The notes: a model not told the origin generated them from the sequence alone. 64,000 nucleotides of DNA from Planctomycetota bacterium (GCA_031409275.1 JANNXA010000051.1:64001-128000); one strand, 5' to 3'. Positions 1 through 46,077 are shown, counted from the first letter of the stretch. Numbers and translations: made by a program.

Positions 1-162
1 CGCCACCGACGTCTTGCGTCGTCCCGTGCCCCAGTAGTAGCCGCCGAGCTTCTTGCCGCGCAGACGCGACGCGGGCTTGGGAGCCAGGTCGATCGTGGCC
101 TGCGCCGCGACGGGCGAGCCAACCAGAGGAGCCGATTCGGGAAGGTTGCGCATCGTGTTCAT
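1..162 (-). CDS. rpsI: 30S ribosomal protein S9 (5' part; runs off window start)
   Basis: Manual translation of the minus strand from ATG 162 gives MNTMRNLPESAP...KKLGGYYWGTGRRKTSVA, containing the S9 motif GTGRRKTSVA. Lies directly downstream of rplM. Not in the ORF track. Confidence 0.93.
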   Translation of the reverse strand, partial: MNTMRNLPESAPLVGSPVAAQATIDLAPKPASRLRGKKLGGYYWGTGRRKTSVA

Positions 163-33477: not shown

Positions 33478-36400
33478 ATGCGCCGCCCCCACCTCCTCGC
33501 ACTCGCTCTCTGCGTCGCCGCGACCGCGCTCTTTGCCCTGCCGCCGCTCGCCGCTCGCGACGAGCGCCCGCCGCTGGACGAGGCGCCCGCGGCGCTGCGC
33601 GATGCGCTCCTCGACGGCGACTTCGAGAACGCCCTGGCGCAGCTCGTCGAACTGGAACGCAGTGAGCCGACGCGCGGCGACCTCTGGGCGATGCTGCGCG
33701 GCCAGATCCACGCAACGCGCGGGGAGGCGGCGCTCGCCGAACAGGACTTCGCCGCGGTCGAGAGTCGATTCGCTGGCACTCCCTGGCGGAGCAAGGCGCG
33801 TTTCGGCCGGGCCAGCGCCTTGCGCGATCTGCGTCGCTTCGCCGAGGCGGAAGCGATCGTCGCGAGCGAGGCGGCACGGTTGCGCTCCCCGGAGCGGCGC
33901 ACCGAGCTCGCGCAGCTCGCGGTCGATCTCGCCGACGCGGCGCTCGATCCGAAGGCCGCGGGTGCCGCCGAGACGCCGGCGTCCGACCCGGCGCTCGCCT
34001 TCGCGCTTTACGAGCAAGTGCTCGGGCTCGATCCGCCGGCGCCCGTCGTGGCGCATGTGCAGCGCCAGCGCGGCCGCTGCCTCTTGGCGCTGGGCCAGCC
34101 AGGACCCGCGCTCGTCGCCTTCACGGCCTACCTCGCCAGCCCGGCGGGTCGCGAACGGAGCGGGGTATCGATCGATGCTCGCCTCGCGGCGGCGCGCTGC
34201 GAGGCCGCCCTCGGCCGCGTCGGCGATGCACGCCGCTCGCTCGAACGGCTGGCGACCGAGCTGTCGCAAGCGCCCGAGCCGGCCATGCGCGCGCGACTCG
34301 GCGACGCGCTCGAAGCGGCCGCGCGCACCTGGCGTCCCGACCTCGCCACCGAACGACTGCTCGCGGTGACCAGCCTGCGCCGTTTCGTCGAGCAGTGCCC
34401 GGACCACCCGCTCGCGTGGACCGCTCGCCTCGACGCTGCGAGCTACCTGGCCGCGGCCGGGGAGACCGAGGAGGCGCTCGCCGCCTTCGACGCGATCATC
34501 GCTGGGCCGGCGGGAGCTGCCGCGGAAGAGGCGACGCGCGCGCGCGCTGAAGCGGCGTTCCGGCGTGGCCAGTTGCTGTTGAGCCAGGGGCGCTGCGAAG
34601 CAGCAGGAGCCGCCTTCGCCGACTGCGTGGCGCGCGACCCGACGGGCCCCCGTTGGGCCGAGGCGCAAGCGGCGATGGTCGAGGCGGAGTATCGGGTCGC
34701 GGCGATCGCGCGCGACCGCAAGGAGTTCGCGGCCGCGCGCGCCGCTCTCACCCGATTCATCTCGCTCCACCCGCTCGATCCACGCGTCGCCGAGAGCCGC
34801 TTCGAGATCGGCGCGCTCTACCGCGATGAGGCCGAACAACTTCGCCAGGCGAACGGGTCGAGCTCGGTCGAGCCGGCGCTCTCGCTCGAACGCTCGGCGC
34901 TCGAGGAGTGGCAGCGTTGCGTTCGACTCCATCCGGGCAGCGACGTCGCCTCGCACGCACTCTTCGCGAGCGGTCGACTCTGGCACGACTCGCTGCTCGA
35001 TCTCGAGAAGGCGGTCGAGATGTGGCGTGCGTGCAGCTTCGGGGCCTACGCCGGCGAAGCTGCCGGCCGCCTCGCGGAACTGCTCACGCCGAGCCTCTCG
35101 GTCGTGACGCCGCGCTCGTTTCGCAGCAATGAGGCGGCGCACCTCGAACTGCTGGCGCGCAACGTTGCTCAGGTCAAGGTGAAGCTCCATCGGCTCGACC
35201 TCGAGGCCTACTTCCGCAAGTTCCTCGCGGCCGACGCCGTCGAGGAGCTCGACCTCGACCTGATCGCGGCCGACCTCGAATTCACGTTCGACGTCCCGGA
35301 CTACGCGCGCTGGAAGGCGTGCCGCGCCCCCATCACGCTGCCGCTCCTCGGCAGCGGCGCGTGGGTCGCCGTCGTCGAGTCGGAGCAGCAGCGCACCACG
35401 ACCTTGGTGCTGAAGAGCGACATCGATCTGATCGTCAAGTCCGCGGCGCGCGAACTGCTCGTCTTCGCCGAGAATCGCCTGCTCGGGACAGCCGCTGCCG
35501 GCGTCGAATTGCTGATCGACCTCGGAGCCGGCGAAGATGGCTCCCGCCGCCAACACACGGGGACCACGGGCAGCGACGGCCTGTTCCACCTGCGCACCGA
35601 GACCCCGTTCGAGCCGAGCGCGCTGCGGATGCTGGCGAAGAGTGCCGCCGACTTCGCCGTGGTTCAGGTGCCGCTGCAGGGGGGCGCCAGCGCACCGACG
35701 CTGCTGCCGCGCGGCCTCGTCTTCACCGATCGGCCCGCCTACCGGCCGGGCCAGCAGGTCGAGATCGCGGCGTTCCTGCGCGACGTGAAGGAGGGAAGCC
35801 TCACCGCCAGCAAAGGCTCCCGCTGGACGCTCTCGCTGCATGACCCGCGCGATCGCCTGGTCCGCAGCGAAACGCTGCTCCTCGACGAATTCGGCACCGC
35901 CGCTGCGAAGTTCGAACTCGACGCGTTCGCGACGCTCGGCACCTGGATGGTGGTGGTCGAGCGGCAGGATGGCCCCACCTTTCGCGGCAGCTTCCTCGTC
36001 GCCGACTACCAGCTCGAACGGGTCACCCTCGACCTCACAGCGCCGCGACGAGTCTGGTTTCGCGGCGAGACGATCGAAGTCGAAGGGCTCGCGCGCTGGC
36101 AACACGGTGCTCCAGTCGCCGACGCCGCGCTGCGCGTGGAACTCCCTGATGGTCGCATCGAAGAGATGCGCACCGACGCGCAGGGGCAGTTCCGCATCCG
36201 CTTCGAGACCGTCGATCTGCCCGAGGAGCGCGCGCTCGCGTTCCAGGCGACCTTGCTCGACGGCGGCGTCGTCGCGTCGGAGACGATCTTCCTCGCGCTG
36301 CGCGAGTTCGACTTGAGCCTCGAACTGCCGACGCGCGCGCTGCTGGCGGACGAGCGTTTCGCCATCGGCGTGCGCGCCACGCGCCGCGACGGCACGCCGA

Positions 36401-39400
36401 TGGCAACGCCCTGCCGCGTCGCGCTCCTGCGCAAGGAGAGCGGCGGCGGCGAAGTGCGTGCGCAGCAGCTCACGGGCACCACGCTCGCCGCCGATGGGCG
36501 CACCACCTTCGAGGCGACGCTCGCGCGCGGCGGCACCTACGTGGTCCGCGCCGAGGCGACCGATCGCTTCGGGCAGCGCATCGTCGCCGAAGGCATGGTG
36601 CTGATCTCCGACAGCGACGACGAGCAGAAGCTGCGCCTGCTTTCCGATCGCACGCGTCTCGAAGTCGGCGAATCGACCAAGGTGCGCCTGCTGCAACGCG
36701 ATGGCGGCGGCTTGCTGCTCCTGACCTGGGAGCTGCACGATGGGCTGCGCTGGCAGGTGCTCGACGCCCGCGAAGCGACGCGCGAGCTCACCATCACCGC
36801 CGACGCCGAACTCGCGCCCGGCTTCGTGCTGGCTGCCGCCGCGATGCGCGGCACTCGTCTCCACATCGCCAGCACCCCTTTCGAGGTGACGCGCGCGCTT
36901 CGCCTCACGGTGGTGCCGCGCACCGCCACGGCAACCCCGGGCGGCGAGCTGACCGTCGACTTCACCACTGCCGATCCGCTTGGACGGCCGCTTTCGGCCC
37001 GCGTCGCGTTGGCTGTCGTCGACGACGCGCTGCTGCGGCAGTTTCCCGACACCACGCCGCTCCCGGAGCGCGTCTTCGCGCTCGGCGGTGGTGCGCCCGC
37101 GCCGTGGCGCCTCTCTTCGAGCTGCACCTTCCGCTACGAGGCGGCACCGGTCGCGATCGCGCGCACCGTCCGCGACGAAGAAGCGCGGCAAGTGGCGACC
37201 GCCGAGTTCGACCGAGAGAAAGGCGGCTTCTTGACGATGCTTGGCTACCTCGGCGACGGCGGCGGCGGCGATGGGCCAGCTAGCGAAGAGCGCCCGGCAG
37301 CCGATCCCGCGGGCAACGCGGACGATCTGGTCCGCGCCACGACGGGTGGTGGCGGCGGCGGCTTTCTGTCGGGCCGCTTGAACCGAAATGCAGTGGCGCG
37401 TTCCAAGCAGCGGGAGGAGGCTGGACGCGCCGCACCCGCGGGTCTCGCCGAAGCGGGGCTCGATGATGACACCGCCTGCTTCGCGCCGGCGATCACCACC
37501 GATGCAGAAGGGAAGGCGAGCGTCACCTTCCGCCTGCCGCAGCGCTCCACCACCTGGCAACTGGTGGCGCGCGGCCTCTCGGTCGACTCGCGCGCCGCGC
37601 TGGCGCAGCAGTCGATCGTCGCTCGCGAGCCCTTCTTCGCCGAGCTGCGAGCACCGGCGACGCTGCGCCAAGGCGACACGCCGCGCCTGCTCGCCACGCT
37701 CTTCTCGGAACCGGGCGCGGTCGGTCAGGTCGAGCTGCGACTGCGCGTGCACCTCGGCGACCAGGTGACCTCGTTGCCGGCCACGCTCGCCCTTTCGCAG
37801 AGCGGCACCACGGAACATCTCTTCCCGGCGCTCGCCGCGCTGCCGCTCACGGCCGACGCGAAGTTCGAGTTGGTGGCCACGCAGGTCGGAGTCACGCCGG
37901 CTCGCGAGCAGCGGAGCACGCTCACGTTGCCCATCGAGCCTTTCGGCCTTGAACGGCGCGCCGCGAAGAGCGGCGAGCTGCGCTCTTCCGCCCGCTTCAC
38001 CCTCGAGCTGCCGGGCGAGGTCAGCTACGTCGCGCGCTCTCTCGATCTCTGGATCGCGCCGAGCGCGGCGCGCCTGCTGCTCGACGACGCGCTCGAGCGG
38101 ACGCTCGATCGGCGCAACGCGCCGCGCGTGCAGCCGCAAGCCGACGTCGCCACCGAACTGCTCGGCACCTGCGAGGTGTTGGCGCTCGGGCAGCAGCTCG
38201 TCACCGGCGCCGCGGCGAGCGAGCTCGACCTCGCCGCCTTGCGTTCGCAGGCGCAAGGGCTGCTGGCTCGCCTCGTCGTCACCCAGCGGGACGACGGCGG
38301 CTTCGCCTGGGCCGGCGACCATGGCAGTGACCGTCCGACCACGGCGCTCGCGCTCGTGGCGCTTGCCCGCGCGCAAGCGCTCGGCTTCGCGGTGCCGGTG
38401 GCGACGATGGGCGCGGCGCGCCAGTACGTCGAGACGGCGTTTCGCAACTCGGGCCCCGACTCCGACGAGCTGAAGGCGATGCTGCAGCTCGCGCTCGCGG
38501 GCCAGGGCGCTGCCGACGCGGCCGCGCTGCAGCGACTGCATCGCGTGCGCGCAACGCTCTCACCCGCGGCGCTCGCCTACACCTGCCTGGCGTTGGTGGC
38601 GAGCGGCAAGGAGCCGATGGCGATCGATCTCGCCGCGCTGATCGAGCAACGCGCGATCGTGGCACCGGCGGGGGGCGCCAGCCGCTGCTGGGACGCGCAG
38701 CAGAATCGCCGATTCCAACGCTCGCCGTTGGAGACCAGCGCGCTAGCGCTGCTCGCGCTTTCAGCCGCGACCCCCGCCTCGCCCACCCTTGCGGGCGCCG
38801 TCGACGCGCTGCTGGCCGAGCGGCCGTGGGCACCGGCGCGCGCCGCCGGACTCGTGCGCGCCGCCCTCGCCCGCTTCTACGCCGATGTGGTTCCCGAACG
38901 CAGCGAAGCGGTCGTCCGCGTGCGCGTGAACGATCGCCTGTTGCCGCCGGTGCTCATGCCGGCCGGCGCCGGCGCGCAGGCGGTCGCCATCCCCGCCGAG
39001 CTGCTGCGGGAGGGCAAGGTGAAGGTGGAGCTCGAGCTCGAAGGACGCGCACGACCGAGCTACGCGGCGCTGCTGCGCGGCTTCACGCCCGACGTGCGGC
39101 GCACCGACCGCGACGACCTGCGCTGGTCGAACGTGGTGGTCAGCGCCCCCGCGCCTCTGCTGCGCGGTCGGCCGCTCGACACCGGCTTCAGCGTCCTTTC
39201 GGAAACGCCGCGCGACAGCTGGATCAACACGCGCGCCGAGCTTGCCGTCGGCGAACTCGCCGAAGTGCAGCTCTCCTGCTACCTCGGCCGCGAATCGGTC
39301 GACGCGGACGACACCGACCCCTACGAGCTCGCCGTTGCGCTGCCGGCCGGTGTCGAGCTGCTGCCCGGGTCGTTGAACGGGAACTTCACCACCTTCGCGC

Positions 39401-41355
39401 TGCGACCGGGCGCGATCGACGTTCGGCTGCTTCGCACGAGCTCGTGGACATCGCTCCGATTCACCGTCGTCGGACGCGTGCCCGGCGACTGGCGCGCGCT
39501 GCCGCCGCAAGCGCGCTCCGCCGTCGAGCTCCATCGCGCCGCGAACGGCGAGGAGTGGAAGCTGCGCGTCCTGCCGGTCGGCGCGAAGAGCGCTGACCCC
39601 TATCGCCCGACGCCCGACGAACTCTTCTCGCGCGGCAAGCGGCTCTTCGAGGCCGGGGAACGCGCCGCAGCTGCCGTTCCGCTCGAGGCGCTGGTGGCCG
39701 AGTTCGGCGCCAAGCTGAAGGAGGCGGCTCAGCGCGAGGTCGCGCGCATGCTGCTCGCGTGCGCGCTCGAAGCGGGCGATGCCACGCGCATCGTGCGCTC
39801 GTTCGAGACCGTGAAGGAGAAGGACCCGGCGCTGGCGTTGCCCGCCGACGAAGTGCGCGCGGTGGCGGCCGCCTACCGCTCGCTCGAGGAGCATGAGCCG
39901 GCGCTCGAACTGACGCGCGCGCTGATCGACGAGACGTTCCGCCGCGACCTGCAGCTCCCGGCGATGCTGGCCGGGGCGAATCGCATGCGCGCCTCCTTCG
40001 AGTTGCGCGAGCGCCTCTGGCTCGACTACCCCGACACGCCCGCGGTGAAGCAGTCCTATCTCGCCCTCTCCGATGACCTGCTCGCGCTGGCTCCACGCGC
40101 CCACGAGAGCGCGCTGCTGCGCGCCGAGAAGCTCGATCGCGCGACGCTGCAGCGCGATGGCATGCGGATCCTGATGCGCTTCCTCGCCTTCAGCCCGAGC
40201 GACCCGCTCGCGCCGGAAGCGGGGCTCGGGTTGGTCACCGCGTGGCTGGCCATCGAGGAGTGGGAGGCTGCTTCGGGCCTCGCCGAACGTCTCGCGAAGC
40301 GCTGGAGCGAGCCGCGCTTCGCCGATTCGTTCCTCTACAGCAAGGCGGTCGCCGAATGGTCGCTCGGCCACGACGACGCGGCGCGCGCGCTGCTTGAGCG
40401 AATCGCCGTCGCGGAGTACGTCGACGCGAGCGGTCGCAAGGTGCCCTCCGTCAACCGCGACCTCGCCTGGTACATCCTCGCGCAGATCCACCACGCGCGC
40501 CGTGACGCCGCCGCCGCGATGCGCTGCTACGAGAAGGTCGCCGGCGCCTTCCCCGATGCGCGCGACGCGCTGCATGGGTTGCGCGAGCGACTGCTCGAAC
40601 TGCCCGAAGTGACCAGCGCTCGGCCGGGCGAGAAGCCACAGGTCGAGCTGCGTTCGAAGAACCTCGCGCGGGCGCAGTTGCTGGTCTATCCGGTCGACTT
40701 GATGACGCTCTGCCTGCGCGAGAAGAACCTCTCCGGCATCGCGGGAGTGAACCTTGCCGGCATCGCGCCAGCGGCGCGCCTCGACGTCGACCTCGCGAAG
40801 GAGTCGCAGTTCGAGCCGCACACGACGAAGGTCGCCCTCGACCTGCCGCAGGCGGGCGCCTACCTCGTGCTGGTGCGGGCGGACGAGCACCACGCTTCGG
40901 GCCTCGTGCTGGTGACGCCGCTCGACCTGCAGGTGAAGGAGGAGAGCGACGGTCGCATGCGCATCCACGTGCAGGATGCGGCGAGCGGCGCCTTCCTGCG
41001 CGACGTCGACGTGCGGGTGATCGGCTCGCGCAACGACGCCTTCACGGCGGGCCGCACCGATCCGCGCGGCCTCTTCGTGGCCGAGGGGCTCGAAGGCACC
41101 GCGACGGTCATCGCACGCGCCGGCGAACGCGCCTACGCCTTCTGGCGCGGCGCGCGCCAACTCGGGCGCGAGGAGCAGTCGAAGCGCAAGGAGGCGGAAC
41201 ACGGCGGCGACGACCAGTTCCGCGAGCAGGGCGACTACTTGAAGAACGTCGTCGAACTGAACCGCGGTCTGCAGCAACAGCGCGCCAGCAACCTCGAACA
41301 GGAGTTCAAGAAGGCCGGGCAGGCGGTTCCGGTGCAGAGCCAGCAGGAGGAGTAG
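33478..41355 (+). CDS. giant exported TPR + alpha-2-macroglobulin family protein (2625 aa)
   Basis: Signal peptide, TPR-like helices, MG2 motif FTDRPAYRPGQQV, LAVVDDALL, TTDAEGKASVTFRLPQRSTTWQL, QRDDGGFAW, then C-terminal TPRs. Confidence 0.85.
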   Translation: MRRPHLLALALCVAATALFALPPLAARDERPPLDEAPAALRDALLDGDFENALAQLVELERSEPTRGDLWAMLRGQIHATRGEAALAEQDFAAVESRFAGTPWRSKARFGRASALRDLRRFAEAEAIVASEAARLRSPERRTELAQLAVDLADAALDPKAAGAAETPASDPALAFALYEQVLGLDPPAPVVAHVQRQRGRCLLALGQPGPALVAFTAYLASPAGRERSGVSIDARLAAARCEAALGRVGDARRSLERLATELSQAPEPAMRARLGDALEAAARTWRPDLATERLLAVTSLRRFVEQCPDHPLAWTARLDAASYLAAAGETEEALAAFDAIIAGPAGAAAEEATRARAEAAFRRGQLLLSQGRCEAAGAAFADCVARDPTGPRWAEAQAAMVEAEYRVAAIARDRKEFAAARAALTRFISLHPLDPRVAESRFEIGALYRDEAEQLRQANGSSSVEPALSLERSALEEWQRCVRLHPGSDVASHALFASGRLWHDSLLDLEKAVEMWRACSFGAYAGEAAGRLAELLTPSLSVVTPRSFRSNEAAHLELLARNVAQVKVKLHRLDLEAYFRKFLAADAVEELDLDLIAADLEFTFDVPDYARWKACRAPITLPLLGSGAWVAVVESEQQRTTTLVLKSDIDLIVKSAARELLVFAENRLLGTAAAGVELLIDLGAGEDGSRRQHTGTTGSDGLFHLRTETPFEPSALRMLAKSAADFAVVQVPLQGGASAPTLLPRGLVFTDRPAYRPGQQVEIAAFLRDVKEGSLTASKGSRWTLSLHDPRDRLVRSETLLLDEFGTAAAKFELDAFATLGTWMVVVERQDGPTFRGSFLVADYQLERVTLDLTAPRRVWFRGETIEVEGLARWQHGAPVADAALRVELPDGRIEEMRTDAQGQFRIRFETVDLPEERALAFQATLLDGGVVASETIFLALREFDLSLELPTRALLADERFAIGVRATRRDGTPMATPCRVALLRKESGGGEVRAQQLTGTTLAADGRTTFEATLARGGTYVVRAEATDRFGQRIVAEGMVLISDSDDEQKLRLLSDRTRLEVGESTKVRLLQRDGGGLLLLTWELHDGLRWQVLDAREATRELTITADAELAPGFVLAAAAMRGTRLHIASTPFEVTRALRLTVVPRTATATPGGELTVDFTTADPLGRPLSARVALAVVDDALLRQFPDTTPLPERVFALGGGAPAPWRLSSSCTFRYEAAPVAIARTVRDEEARQVATAEFDREKGGFLTMLGYLGDGGGGDGPASEERPAADPAGNADDLVRATTGGGGGGFLSGRLNRNAVARSKQREEAGRAAPAGLAEAGLDDDTACFAPAITTDAEGKASVTFRLPQRSTTWQLVARGLSVDSRAALAQQSIVAREPFFAELRAPATLRQGDTPRLLATLFSEPGAVGQVELRLRVHLGDQVTSLPATLALSQSGTTEHLFPALAALPLTADAKFELVATQVGVTPAREQRSTLTLPIEPFGLERRAAKSGELRSSARFTLELPGEVSYVARSLDLWIAPSAARLLLDDALERTLDRRNAPRVQPQADVATELLGTCEVLALGQQLVTGAAASELDLAALRSQAQGLLARLVVTQRDDGGFAWAGDHGSDRPTTALALVALARAQALGFAVPVATMGAARQYVETAFRNSGPDSDELKAMLQLALAGQGAADAAALQRLHRVRATLSPAALAYTCLALVASGKEPMAIDLAALIEQRAIVAPAGGASRCWDAQQNRRFQRSPLETSALALLALSAATPASPTLAGAVDALLAERPWAPARAAGLVRAALARFYADVVPERSEAVVRVRVNDRLLPPVLMPAGAGAQAVAIPAELLREGKVKVELELEGRARPSYAALLRGFTPDVRRTDRDDLRWSNVVVSAPAPLLRGRPLDTGFSVLSETPRDSWINTRAELAVGELAEVQLSCYLGRESVDADDTDPYELAVALPAGVELLPGSLNGNFTTFALRPGAIDVRLLRTSSWTSLRFTVVGRVPGDWRALPPQARSAVELHRAANGEEWKLRVLPVGAKSADPYRPTPDELFSRGKRLFEAGERAAAAVPLEALVAEFGAKLKEAAQREVARMLLACALEAGDATRIVRSFETVKEKDPALALPADEVRAVAAAYRSLEEHEPALELTRALIDETFRRDLQLPAMLAGANRMRASFELRERLWLDYPDTPAVKQSYLALSDDLLALAPRAHESALLRAEKLDRATLQRDGMRILMRFLAFSPSDPLAPEAGLGLVTAWLAIEEWEAASGLAERLAKRWSEPRFADSFLYSKAVAEWSLGHDDAARALLERIAVAEYVDASGRKVPSVNRDLAWYILAQIHHARRDAAAAMRCYEKVAGAFPDARDALHGLRERLLELPEVTSARPGEKPQVELRSKNLARAQLLVYPVDLMTLCLREKNLSGIAGVNLAGIAPAARLDVDLAKESQFEPHTTKVALDLPQAGAYLVLVRADEHHASGLVLVTPLDLQVKEESDGRMRIHVQDAASGAFLRDVDVRVIGSRNDAFTAGRTDPRGLFVAEGLEGTATVIARAGERAYAFWRGARQLGREEQSKRKEAEHGGDDQFREQGDYLKNVVELNRGLQQQRASNLEQEFKKAGQAVPVQSQQEE

Positions 41356-42149
41356 CAGGCGGAGCCGCAGGAGGAGTGGACGGCGGCGGCGGCGGCTCGT
41401 CGGCCAGCAGGACCTCGAGCATGCGGGCGGGGTTGCGCAGGAAGTCGCGGGTCAGCACGCAATGCGCCGACTCCTCCCACGCGACCGCGCGCATGCCGTT
41501 TGGGTCGAGCTCGACGATCTTGGCGTCGGGGTAGGCCGCCGGGATGGAAGCGCTCGAGCGCGATCCAGAGGAAGAACTCGCCGTGCGACTTCTCGTGGAG
41601 CGGTTCCCATTCGTACTCGTACGCCTCGCGCTCGGCTTCGGTCGCGATGTTGAACAGCGACTCGGCGCGCAGGAAGAAGCCGCCGTTCTCGCGCCGCGGC
41701 CCGCGAGCGAGTCGCAACGCCTCATGCAACGACGACTCGCTCGGCCGCGTCGCCGAACGGAAGTTCTTGGTCCCGCCCTCCGCGTTGAAGACCGCGTTGA
41801 TGGCGATCGCCTCGATCAGCGTCGACTTGCCCGATCCGTTTTCGCCGACGAGGAACGTGACCGCGGGACGGAACTCCAGCCGCTCGAGCCGTGCGATCGC
41901 GGGGATCGAGTAGTGTCCTAGAACAGAAGTTCGCGAACACGGACCGAGGCGATGTTTGGGTCAGGCGAGGAGTGCCGACGAATCAACTTCCCTGGCAGTT
42001 GGTGAGGAGGCGAGACGAAGCATGGCGCGAAGAGCGCCCGGTTTCGTGGAAGCGAACCTCTGTTCCAGGACACTAGGGATCGCCGTTCCAATCGCCGACC
42101 TTGTCGCGCAGCGCTCGATGTGGCGCAGGATGCCCGCGATGGCGCTCAC
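41306..42149 (-). pseudogene. ABC-type ATPase (COG3910-like) pseudogene
   Basis: VTFLVGENGSGKSTLIEAIA, FFLRAES, SHGE and AYPDAKI..TRDFLRNP fragments in different frames; 1-nt frameshift near 42112, MITE at 41911-42075, Walker B region absent with frameshift near 41535. Confidence 0.85.
41911..42075 (+). mobile_element. IS630-derived MITE (161 bp plus TA target duplication)
   Basis: Terminal inverted repeats TAGTGTCCTaGAACAGAaGTTCGC / GCGAACcTCTGTTCcAGGACACTA (22/24 including the TA). Removing it with one TA restores GAT CCC TAC TCG (DPYS) in the ATPase. Confidence 0.85.
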
Positions 42150-42230: not shown

Positions 42231-44789
42231 TCATTTCCCCTCGAGCCAATCGGCGAAGAGCTGCGGGTCGTCCTTGAACTTCTGGTCGAACGAGGTGTGT
42301 CGGATCAGCTTGCGCGTCTTCGGGTCGATCGCGATGTAGTACGACTGCGCGTGGTAGCCGATGTAGCCGCGCTCGATCTCGATCCACTTCTCTCCCAGCG
42401 TGTCGTGGTCGGTGTGGAGACGCGCTTCGATGAACCCTGCCTTGAAAGCCCGGCGCACGGCCGGGTGCGGGAAGATCTCCTCTTCCATGACGCGGCAGTT
42501 GATTCAGGTAAAGCCGGTGAAGTTCAACAGCACCAGCTTCCCCTCCTTCTGCGCGCGAAGGCACGCGGCATCGAGGTCGTCGACGATCGTCACGTGGGCG
42601 GCATCCACTGCCGATTCGCCCCCGCCGCCGCCGCTGCGCGTCGAATAGGGCGGCGCCATCACCGTCATCACCCAGTCGAGCTTGCTGCCGAGCGCGCCGT
42701 TCAAGTTGTAGAGGCCAAACAGCATGAAGGCGACGCCGGCCACCATGCGACCGGAGCCGACCGACGCGTGCAGCCGAACCGGCACTCCCGGCTCGAGGAC
42801 GACAGGCTCGCTGTCCTCATGCAGCCGGATCACGCCCCAGAGATAGAGCGCCGCGGCCAAGAAGATGCCGGCCCACCAGAGATAGAAGAGCTCGCGCGAG
42901 ATGACGCCCCACTGCAACACGAGGTCGGCGTTCGAGAAGAACTTGAGCGCCGCCGCCAGCTCGATGAATCCGAGGCAGACCTTGAGCGTGTGCATCCACT
43001 CGCCGCTCTTGGGCAGCGTCTTCGCCTTGGCGGGCAGCAGCGACAGGAAGACGAACGGGATCGCCATCGTCAGCCCGAAGACGGTCATGCCCAGCACGAC
43101 GCGCAGCATGCTCGACGCGCCCGCCGCCAGCAGCGAGCCGACGAACGGAGCGGTGCAGGTGAACGAGGTGATCACCAGCGTCGCGCCCATCAGGAAGACG
43201 CCGACGTAGCCGCCCTTGCGCGTCGCCTTGCCGGCCGCCTGCAGCAGGAACTGCGGCGGCTGCAGCAGGAGCAGCCCGAAGAGCGAGAGCGAGAAGACGA
43301 CGAAGAAGGTGCCGATGATCAGGTTCGTCACCCAGTGGGTCGCGAACGGGATGATGATCGGACCGACGAGCGCCCCGATCACCACGTAGATGATCACGAT
43401 GCCGGCACCGTAGGTCAGCGAGAGCGGCAGGATCGAGGTCTGCCGCGCCGTCGCCTGCTTGGTGAAGTAGCTGATCGTGATCGGGATCATCGGGTAGGTG
43501 CACGGCATCAGCAGGCTGAAGAGCCCCCACCCGAATGCGGTGAGCAGGAAGACTCCGAGCGGCAGCTCTTCGAGTTTGGCCGCGGCCTTGTTGACCGGCG
43601 CGGCGGAGGCCGTCTCGTCGGGCGCCTCGTTGCCGTTCGCCGCGCCGCTCGCCGCGCCGCTCACCGCACCGTCCTGCGCCAGCGCCGCGCCGACCACGAG
43701 ATCGGCCGGGAATGCGGCGAAGAGCGCATCGAGGCCGGTGCCCGCGTTCTTCACGCGCTGGGCGTACGGCACGCAGCCGCTCGAGTTGCATGTGTCGCCA
43801 TCGAGGCTCAGCGTCAGTGCCGAGAGGTCCGCGCCCGCTGCTGCCGTCCCGCGCAGGTAGACGACAAAGGTCCCCTCGTGGACCCAGAGCCACGTCTTGG
43901 TGGCGCCGAACTCCTGCGGCTCCCTCTTCGGCTCCGGGAAACGCGCGGCACTCCACTCGACGGCCGCCCCCTCGAACGCGAGCGTGGTCGGCTTGCCGAT
44001 CGCGTCCGGGCCGCCGAGGTCCGCGTCCGTCGGCCCGTGACCGATGTGGTAGCCCGGATCGACGGAGATCTGCACCGCCGCCGTGACGTCGGCCCCATCC
44101 GCGCGGACGAAGAACTGCGCGTGCGCACGCAGATCGTCGAAGGCGCCAAACGACGGGACGGAGAACTCGCGGGCCGGCTCGACTTTCGGTTCGGGCGCGC
44201 CCGGCGCCAGCAGATCGGCGGGGAACTTCTCGAAGAGCTTGTCGCGGCCCGCGCCGCCGCTCGTCACCTTCTGCTTGTAGGGCACGCAGCCGGCCGCATT
44301 GCAGGTCTGACCGCGGATGGTGAGTTCGATCGTCGCGGGGTCGGCGGCCGCGTCGGTCCTGCGTCCGCGCACCCACACGACCGGCGAGCCGTAGTGGACG
44401 TTCAACCAGGTCTTGATCGCTCCGAACTCCTGCTCCTCGCGCTCAGGATCGGGGAAGCGCGGGACGCTCCACTCGAAGCCGGCGCCGGCGAAGGCCAGCG
44501 TCGTGGGCATGCCGGCGGCATCGGGTCCGCCGACGTCGGCGGCGGTGGGACCGTGACCGATGTGGTAACCCGGCTCGAGCACGATCTCGACGGCGACCTT
44601 CACGTCGTCGCCGTCGACGCGCAACCACAGCTTGGTGTCGGCGCGATTCTGAGCGAACGCCGCCGTCGACAGCAGCGCCAGGACGACGCAGCGCAGGCTC
44701 ACCTGCAGGAAGCGTGCGAGTCGAGAGCGTCCACTGCGGCGCCGCGCGCCGCGCTCCGTCTCGATCGGTAGGGACGACGTGACCACCAT
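42231..44789 (-). CDS. dsbD: DsbD-family thiol:disulfide interchange protein, probable selenoprotein (in-frame UGA at 42506-42504, UxxC)
   Basis: Two DsbD-N-like domains (TCNAAGCVPY, TCNSSGCVPY), TM domain cysteines (LMPCTYPMIP, SFTCTAPFVG), PKSGEWM, then thioredoxin LLNFTGFT*INCRVMEEEIF continuing in frame to the stop at 42231. GAGGAG upstream of ATG 44789. Confidence 0.85.
42467..42503 (-). promoter_or_regulatory. candidate bacterial SECIS element
   Basis: After the UGA: stem GGAAGA/UCUUCC closing a GGAGA loop that starts 23 nt downstream, with possible lower GCG/CGC pairing. Folded by eye only. Confidence 0.55.
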
Positions 44790-44934
44790 CGGCTGAAGTG
44801 CTCCTCGACGCATCGCGCGACCTCGCGCCTCGTTGCGCCCGCTTCGTCTACGAACCGCGCCGTCATTGGTGCCGCTCGGAGAAGCGCGGGAGGTTAACCG
44901 ACCGCGTGCGCGCTGGCGTGCGCCCGGGGTGGGC

Positions 44935-46077
44935 TCAGCTGGCGAGGAGCTCGTCGTAGAGCGCGCCGTAGCTTCGGACCATGGCTGCGAGGTCGAACTC
45001 GGCCTGCGCCTTTTTGCGGTTCGCCGCGCCGATCGCCGCACTCGCCGCCGGATCATCGAGCAGCGCCGCAAGCGCGGCGGCGAACGTGGCCGGCTCCCGG
45101 GAGGCGACCACGCTGCGCTGCCCCTCCGGCGCGACCATCGTTGCGACATCGCCCACCGCGGTCGCAACGGCCGGAAGTCCGCACCCCATCGCCTCGATCA
45201 GCGAGATCGGCATCTGCTCGGTGTGCGAGGTGAGGGCGAAGAGGTCCATCGCGTGGTAGGCGTCGCGCGGATCGGGGAGGTTGCCGGCGAAATGGACTCG
45301 CGCCGCGATGCCGCGTGATTCGGCCAGCGCGCGCAGGCGCCCCTCTTCCGGCCCGTCGCCGACGATGAGCAGTTGCGCGGTGCGCAGCGCGCCGCTCGTC
45401 GCCGCGCGCGCCGTCGCCACGGCGTCGATCAGCAGCTCGAGCGCCTTCTCCGGTCGCAGCCGCGCCACGGTCCCGATCACCGGCACCGCCTCGGCAAGTC
45501 CGAGCGCGGCCCGCGCCGCACGCTTCGCGGCGACGTCTCGCACCGGCGCGAAGTGGTTCAGGTCGATGCCGTTGCGGATGTAGACGCGTTGCGCCGCCGG
45601 CACGTGCCAGGTGTGCTGGGCATGGCGCAACAGGAGCTGCGAAGGGACGACGACGCGCGACACGAGCGGCAGCACGAGTCGGCGGAAGCGGACGCGGCGC
45701 GGCAGCTGGCCGCTCGCCTCATCGGGCCCGAATCCATCCTCGGCGTGCAGCAAGCGGCGATAGCCGAAGAGGCGCGCGCCCGGAATCGCCTCGATCGCGC
45801 CCCAGTTGTAGGTCACCACGAGATCGGGTTGAAGGCGCGAAATCAGCCGCCCGAGTCGCCAGGAGTAAGCACCGAGCACTCCCTTCTTCGGCGGATCGGC
45901 GTAGGCGACGCGCGAATGGCCGGCGAGGCGCGCGGCACAGGCGAAGTTGCCATCGAGCCCGACGATCGTGTGGCGGTAGCGATCGGGCAGCGCGTGGATC
46001 AGCGTCGCCGTGCGCACTTGCGGCCCGCCGGCCGCGAACGTGCTGAAGAGGTGGAGCAGGTGGCGCTCGCCCGCCAT
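44935..46077 (-). CDS. glycosyltransferase family 4 (GT-B)
   Basis: GGPQ, HAEDG, IRNGID, VARLRPEK, VGDGPE, SHTEQMPISLIEAMGCGLPAVATAVG. Confidence 0.9.
   Translation of the reverse strand: MAGERHLLHLFSTFAAGGPQVRTATLIHALPDRYRHTIVGLDGNFACAARLAGHSRVAYADPPKKGVLGAYSWRLGRLISRLQPDLVVTYNWGAIEAIPGARLFGYRRLLHAEDGFGPDEASGQLPRRVRFRRLVLPLVSRVVVPSQLLLRHAQHTWHVPAAQRVYIRNGIDLNHFAPVRDVAAKRAARAALGLAEAVPVIGTVARLRPEKALELLIDAVATARAATSGALRTAQLLIVGDGPEEGRLRALAESRGIAARVHFAGNLPDPRDAYHAMDLFALTSHTEQMPISLIEAMGCGLPAVATAVGDVATMVAPEGQRSVVASREPATFAAALAALLDDPAASAAIGAANRKKAQAEFDLAAMVRSYGALYDELLAS

Follow-up and report, generated by a model that had tools for sequence, protein, structure and literature searches.

We analysed a 64,000-nucleotide stretch of DNA (the window) from a Planctomycetota bacterium (GCA_031409275.1 JANNXA010000051.1:64001-128000), in which a minus-strand gene very likely specifies a complete DsbD with selenocysteine, a protein that would carry reducing equivalents out of the cytoplasm to the cell envelope. 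DsbD is the central supplier of envelope reductant. Judged by comparison of sequences, the gene is a real and widespread selenocysteine (Sec) form of a known enzyme class that is truncated in public annotation, and its in-frame UGA is almost certainly decoded as Sec. The gene and codon concerned are as follows.

42231..44789, minus strand: predicted dsbD-type gene, 852 amino acids (aa) with UGA 762 decoded as Sec, from the frame translation and Pfam DsbD_N, DsbD_TM and Thioredoxin_7
42504..42506, minus strand: in-frame TGA, predicted selenocysteine 762, from the sequence, the column in relatives, the contigs and a motif scan of the phylum

Starting at ATG 44789, the frame runs for 853 codons, with TGA as codon 762 and a terminal TGA as codon 853. 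The original prediction, made from this DNA alone, had proposed the same joined 852-aa DsbD, and translation agrees. The minus strand at the site reads exactly as quoted there, TTC ACC GGC TTT ACC TGA ATC AAC TGC CGC GTC ATG GAA, and the UGA occupies the first position of the thioredoxin CxxC motif (FTGFT-U-INCRVME). The two open reading frames (ORFs) that had been joined, 42504..45167 and 42231..42488, lie in a single frame: the first is present as an ORF, and ATG 42488, which starts 16 nucleotides (nt) downstream of the UGA, shares its frame. Third-position GC content is 0.92 upstream of the UGA and 0.90 downstream. Automated annotation had been expected to cut the protein short, and it does; the public record is a 761-aa product ending at the UGA. 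Among the best 120 protein matches, 74 stop immediately ahead of the site, 44 read on with C (a few of which could be U displayed as C by the tool) and 2 could not be parsed. As for an assembly error in place of TGC or TGT, contigs of three runs span the codon and keep the TGA with no variant letters, a fourth run having no coverage; this check used assembled contigs, not raw reads, of four runs from a single study, two of which may be the source of this DNA.

Tabulation of UGA against Cys across related genomes, which had been proposed as a check, showed both forms. Via a protein query, 49 of 61 genomes matched the C-terminal part, and the 30 loci retrieved carry either TGA (14) or TGC/TGT (16) at the site. 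Each of the 14 interrupted loci has TGA as its internal stop, precisely at this column, and tRNA-Sec occurs in every one of the 14 TGA genomes; selA is present in 13, and the exception, G009, has selB. A private nonsense mutation, with Cys in all close homologues and relaxed selection behind it, is not what is seen: close homologues share the TGA, and the downstream segment is open and conserved. Against the nearest relative, the ratio of nonsynonymous to synonymous substitution rates (dN/dS) is 0.29 before the UGA and 0.30 after it.

A scan of 401 sampled Planctomycetota genomes found the TGA motif in 55 and the Cys motif in 23, while a reversed control pattern gave 0 matches. selA occurs in 290 of the 401 genomes, in 54 of the 55 with the TGA motif and in 17 of the 23 with the Cys motif (6 are without it); the one TGA-motif genome that lacks selA (G360, 67% complete) has selB and tRNA-Sec. 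These counts are given without a p-value because kin are not independent. From the selA distribution, Sec use appears to be the rule in the phylum. A scan of GTDB yielded at least 119 loci; among the matches listed, 117 are the C-terminal (gamma) domain of this gene and 2 are fortuitous. The membrane motif PCxYPM lies in the same open frame in 72 of the 80 long loci. Of the titles listed, 80 in number, most are Planctomycetota and the remainder include two Armatimonadota; the named closest homologues are Planctomycetes, and the genome's 16S gene matches a Planctomycetes primer. A FastTree phylogeny of 118 proteins needs 12 switches between Sec and Cys, 8 of them forced by starred branches. On this comparative evidence, the in-frame UGA at this column is not a product of chance.

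The decoding machinery was found in full. selA, selB and selD score above curated cut-offs, and one of the 59 tRNAs called by ARAGORN is tRNA-SeC(UCA), so all four components that the original prediction had named for a search are present. Three features expected of a bacterial selenoprotein are found together here: a UGA aligned with the catalytic Cys of homologues, the complete machinery and a conserved frame of coding quality after the UGA. The SelD gene carries an in-frame UGA of its own (SSCAG-U-AAK). It adjoins selA (G000:C40:252211-254558; L001, L005), and its UGA is followed by a hairpin with a G-U loop at +28.

Twenty further Sec candidates were chosen by protein motif from two genome scans (96 and 16 rows); the codon-model scan missed both the DsbD gene and SelD, so the list is incomplete. 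Fifteen of the 20 match NCBIfam redox families with E values of 1e-5 or better, and the families include peroxiredoxins, TlpA/ResA-like proteins, Trx7/PDZ, VPGUxxT, ArsC-like and MsrBA. Judged by eye, many start with apparent signal peptides. The genes with an in-frame TGA at a redox motif, at least 20 in number (L183-L202), lie on contigs C3, C7, C9, C16, C23, C27, C28, C30, C33, C34, C37, C43, C45, C47, C50 and C51 of the genome (G000). Among them, L198 (ESC-U), L199 (GCV-U) and the FG-GAP propellers L201 and L202 (U-C) have no NCBIfam family match.

The multi-domain architecture that had been claimed for the protein was borne out, with the domain order alpha-alpha-beta-gamma backed by Pfam, PDB sequence matches and the predicted fold.

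44652..44789, minus strand: likely signal peptide, residues 1-46, with a basic stretch, hydrophobic core and A-F-A end, from the translation (hydropathy peak 27-45; cleavage site predicted)
44190..44651, minus strand: alpha domain copy 1 (beta-sandwich), Cys163-x4-Cys168, from a weak Pfam DsbD_N match (E 0.002) and the model, whose fold matches DsbD-alpha 3pfu, 1jpe and 1vrs
43674..44144, minus strand: alpha domain copy 2, Cys334-x4-Cys339, from 59% identity to copy 1 over 146 aa and the model
42690..43565, minus strand: membrane (beta) domain, Cys430 (PCTYPM) and Cys545 (FTCTAP), from PF02683 (E 1e-25) and a match to CcdA 5vkv
42234..42599, minus strand: thioredoxin-fold gamma domain, U762-x-x-C765, from PF13899, a match to 3f9u across the UGA (E 1.4e-9) and the model
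42342..42344, minus strand: Ser816, at the predicted cis-proline column of the thioredoxin fold, where it aligns with the Pro of 3f9u and nearly all relatives have Pro

The PF02683 and PF13899 matches are above cut-off, PF11412 (alpha) reaches 25.8 bits against a cut-off of 25 for the whole protein and is weak for each copy, and PF13098, at 20.2 bits, falls under its cut-off of 27. The AlphaFold2 model, built from 20 rows (predicted local distance difference test 77, predicted template modelling score 0.50), has two beta-sandwiches, a helical core and a thioredoxin-like end, with the packing of the domains unsure. Foldseek matched it to ScsB-alpha 6c29, to DsbD-alpha 3pfu, 1jpe and 1vrs (template modelling score (TM) about 0.6 on target) and to 3f9u. 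Cys334/Cys339, Cys430 and Cys545 are invariant in the 20-row alignment. The protein thus has the parts that define the DsbD class, namely a two-Cys membrane domain, an immunoglobulin (Ig)-like alpha domain with a Cys pair and a thioredoxin-fold gamma domain with a UxxC redox pair, and by homology it very probably works as a DsbD-type relay. It is the sole DsbD_TM match over cut-off in the 5.59-Mb assembly, which is 92.9% complete. A weak match considered as a second DsbD or CcdA (C55:417341-417775; L204) was rejected, being a membrane protein of PF13386 that bears an HCIGMCGG motif and differs from canonical CcdA. A PF11412 search of the genome gave no match and missed the DsbD gene itself, so it cannot show the absence of other alpha domains.

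Escherichia coli DsbD (NF001419/PRK00293; 1vrs, 1jpe; PMC3322552 and PMC2631958, both in excerpt) shares with this protein the domain order, a Cys pair per domain type, the Ig-like alpha fold, the CcdA-like membrane core and the thioredoxin-fold gamma domain. The differences are Sec at the Cys461 equivalent, two alpha copies, Asn at the Asp455 position and Ser at the cis-proline. By sequence, the best solved relative of the gamma domain is the C-terminal domain of Bacteroides fragilis 3f9u (FTGxxCxNCRKME type), which shares the FTG motif and the fold but has Cys, Asp at -6 and Pro at the cis-proline column. ScsB (6c29) likewise has two tandem Ig-like N-terminal domains and is the top fold match, though a weak one (TM 0.40 on target, root-mean-square deviation 14.7); according to the excerpt of PMC3322552 its Cys pair is in the N-subdomain alone, whereas both alpha copies here have the pair and are 59% identical, which sets the protein apart from ScsB. 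TsoB (NF045694, rhodanese/DsbD fusion-like) is a selenoprotein with a DsbD-like membrane domain that matches residues 392-650. This match covers the membrane part only, at 120.5 bits against a cut-off of 805, and TsoB has UxxxxU with two Sec where the present protein has a single UxxC and no rhodanese domain was found.

UxxC thioredoxin-type selenoproteins are known. We take cd02953 to be the DsbD-gamma model, and one GOS Trx-like 2 read presumably resembles gammaproteobacterial DsbD-gamma. UxxC 'thiol:disulfide interchange protein' selenoproteins (PF13098, cd02953) are listed in Table 1 of PMC13188914, with three cases in Deltaproteobacteria in PMC1794560 and Trx-like 2 in PMC2398784 (the last two in excerpt). 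What this catalogued family shares with our protein is a UxxC within a broadly similar type of thioredoxin domain, PF13098 being sub-threshold here. In the excerpt of PMC2398784, the 22 GOS Trx-like 2 sequences, unlike the DsbD gene, have no membrane domain and no FTGxxUxxC motif. The 2026 review (PMC13188914) does not list the full-length DsbD form as a family; its 119-family Table 1 names DsbD for TsoB only. A search for literature on full-length Sec-DsbD or a distal bacterial selenocysteine insertion sequence (SECIS), which left most subscription papers outside its reach, found none, and Dsb proteins are unmentioned in the available passages of PMC4807772.

Two hairpins follow the UGA.

42470..42486, minus strand: hairpin 1, +18..+34 after the UGA, 6-bp stem, loop GGAGA at +24, -6.6 kcal/mol
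42449..42465, minus strand: hairpin 2, +39..+55 after the UGA, 6-bp stem, loop CGUGC at +45, -11.1 kcal/mol, the likelier SelB-binding SECIS

The rule excerpted from PMC13188914 asks of a bacterial SECIS a G in the first two loop positions, a loop 16-37 nt from the UGA and a folding energy of -7.5 kcal/mol or lower, and the E. coli fdhF element depends on a G-U in its loop (PMC8659212, in excerpt). Both hairpins were held against this rule. Hairpin 1 fits in distance (23 nt) and in its G-G loop, with an energy of -6.6 to -7.4 kcal/mol. Hairpin 2 fits in G and energy and resembles the consensus element as a coding-region stem-loop with a G then U/G opening a small loop; its conserved G-U loop, however, lies 44 nt from the UGA, beyond the 16-37 nt range and behind the other hairpin. 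The SECIS of this gene is probably non-canonical, and from the comparisons that follow we regard hairpin 2 as the likely main SelB site.

The comparison set comprised 123 Sec and 31 Cys rows, with duplicates removed. CGGUCG at +44..49 is present in 75 of the Sec rows and in 0 of the Cys rows, and the core of hairpin 2 is near-invariant among the five members of the genus. Pairs of hairpin 2 rank 4, 10, 20 and 29 of 1953 for covariation (41-52 = 4, 42-51 = 10, 40-53 = 20), uncorrected for kinship. A register-free detector of G-G/U hairpins found a proximal one in 40 and a distal one in 94 of the Sec rows (18 have both), against 0 and 3 of the Cys rows; synonymous recoding of the Sec rows left 12-25 proximal and 38-47 distal hairpins. 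Of 22 distinct additional Cys loci, 9 fall within the Sec clade. Within that clade and at equal GC, the distal hairpin is present in 55/70 Sec and 3/9 Cys rows, a complete hairpin 1 in 45/70 and 1/9, and the A-V-A residues in 48/70 and 0/9. In a phylogeny-aware test with 7 independent pairs, an average of 4.5 pairs linked the distal hairpin to Sec and 0.2 showed the opposite. The association of the distal hairpin with Sec is suggestive on these data. On the first tree, which offered only 2 independent pairs, testing both hairpins in a fixed register gave no signal. A long lower stem (+5..11 with +41..47) was rejected; its pairing is higher in Sec rows, but its covariation ranks are 517-1947 of 1953.

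A scheme for the relay can be modelled on the electron cascade of E. coli DsbD (PMC3322552, in excerpt). Cytoplasmic thioredoxin would reduce membrane Cys430/Cys545, from which electrons would pass to the U762-C765 selenenylsulfide in the outer gamma domain, and the U762 selenolate would attack the disulfide of either alpha copy. The alpha domains would in turn reduce exported oxidoreductases, several of which are among the Sec candidates in the genome. For insertion itself, SelB loaded with Sec-tRNA would bind hairpin 2 at its loop (+45), and hairpin 1 may fold out 17 nt and so place hairpin 2 at roughly the usual reach from the UGA. Selenium shortage would lead to termination at the UGA and to a protein without a working gamma domain. 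Taking all parts jointly, we lean towards the following picture: a widespread, uncatalogued Planctomycetota Sec family; a main trans-membrane reductant channel that is selenium-dependent and feeds a largely exported selenoproteome; a two-hairpin SECIS in several separate Sec lineages, in which a G-U loop that binds SelB, 44-53 nt from the UGA, comes within reach through a spacer hairpin, an arrangement that forces the protein's A-V-A residues; and loss of the cis-proline in the genus.

The Sec form occurs in about one in seven of the sampled phylum genomes (55/401) and is routinely annotated as a truncated protein, often as CcdA or as hypothetical. The repeated switches between Sec and Cys in close relatives provide matched pairs for asking what benefit selenium brings. 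Should the distal hairpin prove to be the SelB site, many such genes would escape SECIS searches confined to 16-37 nt, and bacterial Sec insertion would follow looser design rules than assumed.

A number of observations weigh against parts of this picture. The contig support for the TGA comes from one study and from assembled rather than raw sequence. More distant pairs within the genus have dN/dS of 0.30-0.98 after the UGA against 0.36-0.66 before it, the value after it usually being the higher, with GC bias limiting the synonymous sites, and in the middle bins identity after the site is somewhat lower in Sec pairs than in Cys pairs (0.38 vs 0.46, 0.45 vs 0.52 and 0.62 vs 0.68). The whole protein scores 111.5 bits against a cut-off of 330 for the NCBIfam DsbD model NF001419; since it lies far below the cut-offs of both this model and TsoB, we describe it as DsbD-like in its working without membership in either curated model. 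The cis-proline column holds Ser in this gene, at predicted position 816. About half of the distal hairpin signal survives synonymous recoding, so that protein sequence explains part of it, and the phylogeny-aware test of hairpin 2 is not significant (median p 0.125). Finally, 22 of the 123 Sec rows have a proximal hairpin only and 7 have neither, and hairpin 1 of the DsbD gene nearly fits the textbook rule.

This last point opens the best-surviving alternative, in which Sec is inserted with the proximal hairpin 1 as the SelB site and hairpin 2 either arises incidentally from the P-A-V-x-x codons or acts only as a helper. We consider this possible but less likely. Hairpin 1 sits at the textbook distance (loop +24) with a loop that begins G-G in the DsbD gene, it is complete in 68/123 Sec and 2/31 Cys rows, and its pair 22-30 ranks 3 of 1953 for covariation. 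Moreover, 19 of the genome's other 21 Sec candidates have a proximal hairpin and 1 a distal one. The loop of hairpin 1, however, is not conserved: a leading G in its first two positions is not enriched (76/123 Sec vs 19/31 Cys rows), and the five genus members have four different loops, whereas CGGUCG is confined to Sec rows. The loops of the other Sec candidates in the genome (GGUC, AGUU, CGUG-type) resemble hairpin 2 and are unlike hairpin 1, and Sec lineages that stand apart on the tree (L024, L029, L074 and the L066 group) each carry a distal G-U hairpin at +42, +45 or +53. Five loci (L105, L092, L065, L115 and L017) have the proximal hairpin only. Weighing these points, we retain hairpin 2 as the favoured site.

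It is unlikely that, with Sec present, the gamma domain of the genus has changed its role (e.g., to metal or another partner) owing to replacement of the cis-proline by Ser. The cis-proline column has Pro in 118/123 Sec and 31/31 Cys rows, and Ser in four of the five genus members (the DsbD gene, L011, L012 and L013), with Pro in every other row that has a residue there. The excerpt of PMC2757866 describes this proline as more conserved than CxxC, with a possible role in preventing metal binding. The remaining redox pairs, the UxxC and both hairpins are nevertheless all kept, and the 92.9% complete assembly has no other DsbD_TM match over cut-off.

A second active-site position was considered. 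In E. coli DsbD, Asp455 and Glu468 hold Cys461 at a pKa of 10.5, unreactive until the alpha domain is met (PMC2631958, in excerpt). The Asp455-equivalent column is Asn in 112/123 Sec rows and Asp in 25/31 Cys rows. Replacement of Asp455 by Asn as an adaptation to Sec was nonetheless rejected, as Asn is likewise found in the 44 close Cys forms without exception and 8 independent pairs showed no difference; Asn is therefore a clade trait, not tied to Sec. Unlike E. coli Cys461, the selenolate is likely to be constantly reactive, which would make the protein a natural test of how directionality is kept.

That the UGA is a true stop, with the locus being either a pseudogene or a system split between an alpha-alpha-beta protein and a short ORF that starts at ATG 42488, is highly improbable. 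Public calls do give the 761-aa product, an in-frame ATG lies 16 nt past the UGA, and some truncated product would be expected anyway under selenium scarcity. However, both split pieces would be without the redox motif, as ATG 42488 falls after Cys765, and the interrupting stop, besides being TGA at the exact column in every interrupted locus, tracks the Sec machinery and alternates with Cys. Insertion of Cys or Trp at the UGA, whether through an alternative code or through a suppressor tRNA, is just as improbable, for despite Cys at this column in relatives, tRNA-Sec is the sole tRNA found with a UCA anticodon (tRNA-Trp has CCA and both tRNA-Cys calls GCA; a tRNA could be missing at 92.9% completeness) and TGA also terminates the DsbD gene and 24 of the 30 retrieved loci.

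Of the remaining features in the window, one lies just upstream of the start codon.

44801..44806, minus strand: GAGGAG, likely ribosome-binding site, 11 nt 5' of ATG 44789, read from the sequence

The neighbouring genes encode a 2625-aa protein with TPR and alpha-2-macroglobulin-like parts (33478-41355, plus strand), an AAA ATPase (41238-41915, minus strand) and a group 1 glycosyltransferase (44938-46074, minus strand). No functional link to the DsbD gene is evident, either for the glycosyltransferase upstream or for the AAA ATPase and alpha-2-macroglobulin-like protein downstream.

When residues 735-852 alone served as the query of a word search, none of 71 candidates passed E 1e-8; the search is insensitive and this is not evidence. 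Stand-alone Sec gamma domains considered in G005 were rejected, both being truncated by contig ends. Among the 401 phylum genomes, only G145 matches both the TGA and the Cys motif, and families f6, f8 and f18 are mostly without selA. In L044, L050 and L106, the frame past the Sec gamma domain runs into a second partial DsbD membrane segment (PCTYPM again), which could reflect either a duplication or an assembly artefact; on the opposite strand, L044 additionally carries a thioredoxin gene (WCGPC). The L066 group consists of seven loci (L066, L068, L071, L094, L096, L129 and L142), which form a separate Sec-DsbD group with a C-terminal extension of about 100 aa past gamma; the AGUU loop of their distal hairpin lies between +53 and +59. 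L029 and L038 (family f5) are sister proteins, one Sec and one Cys, both about 25 aa shorter at the C-terminus than other relatives, and the distal hairpin is kept by the Sec member alone.

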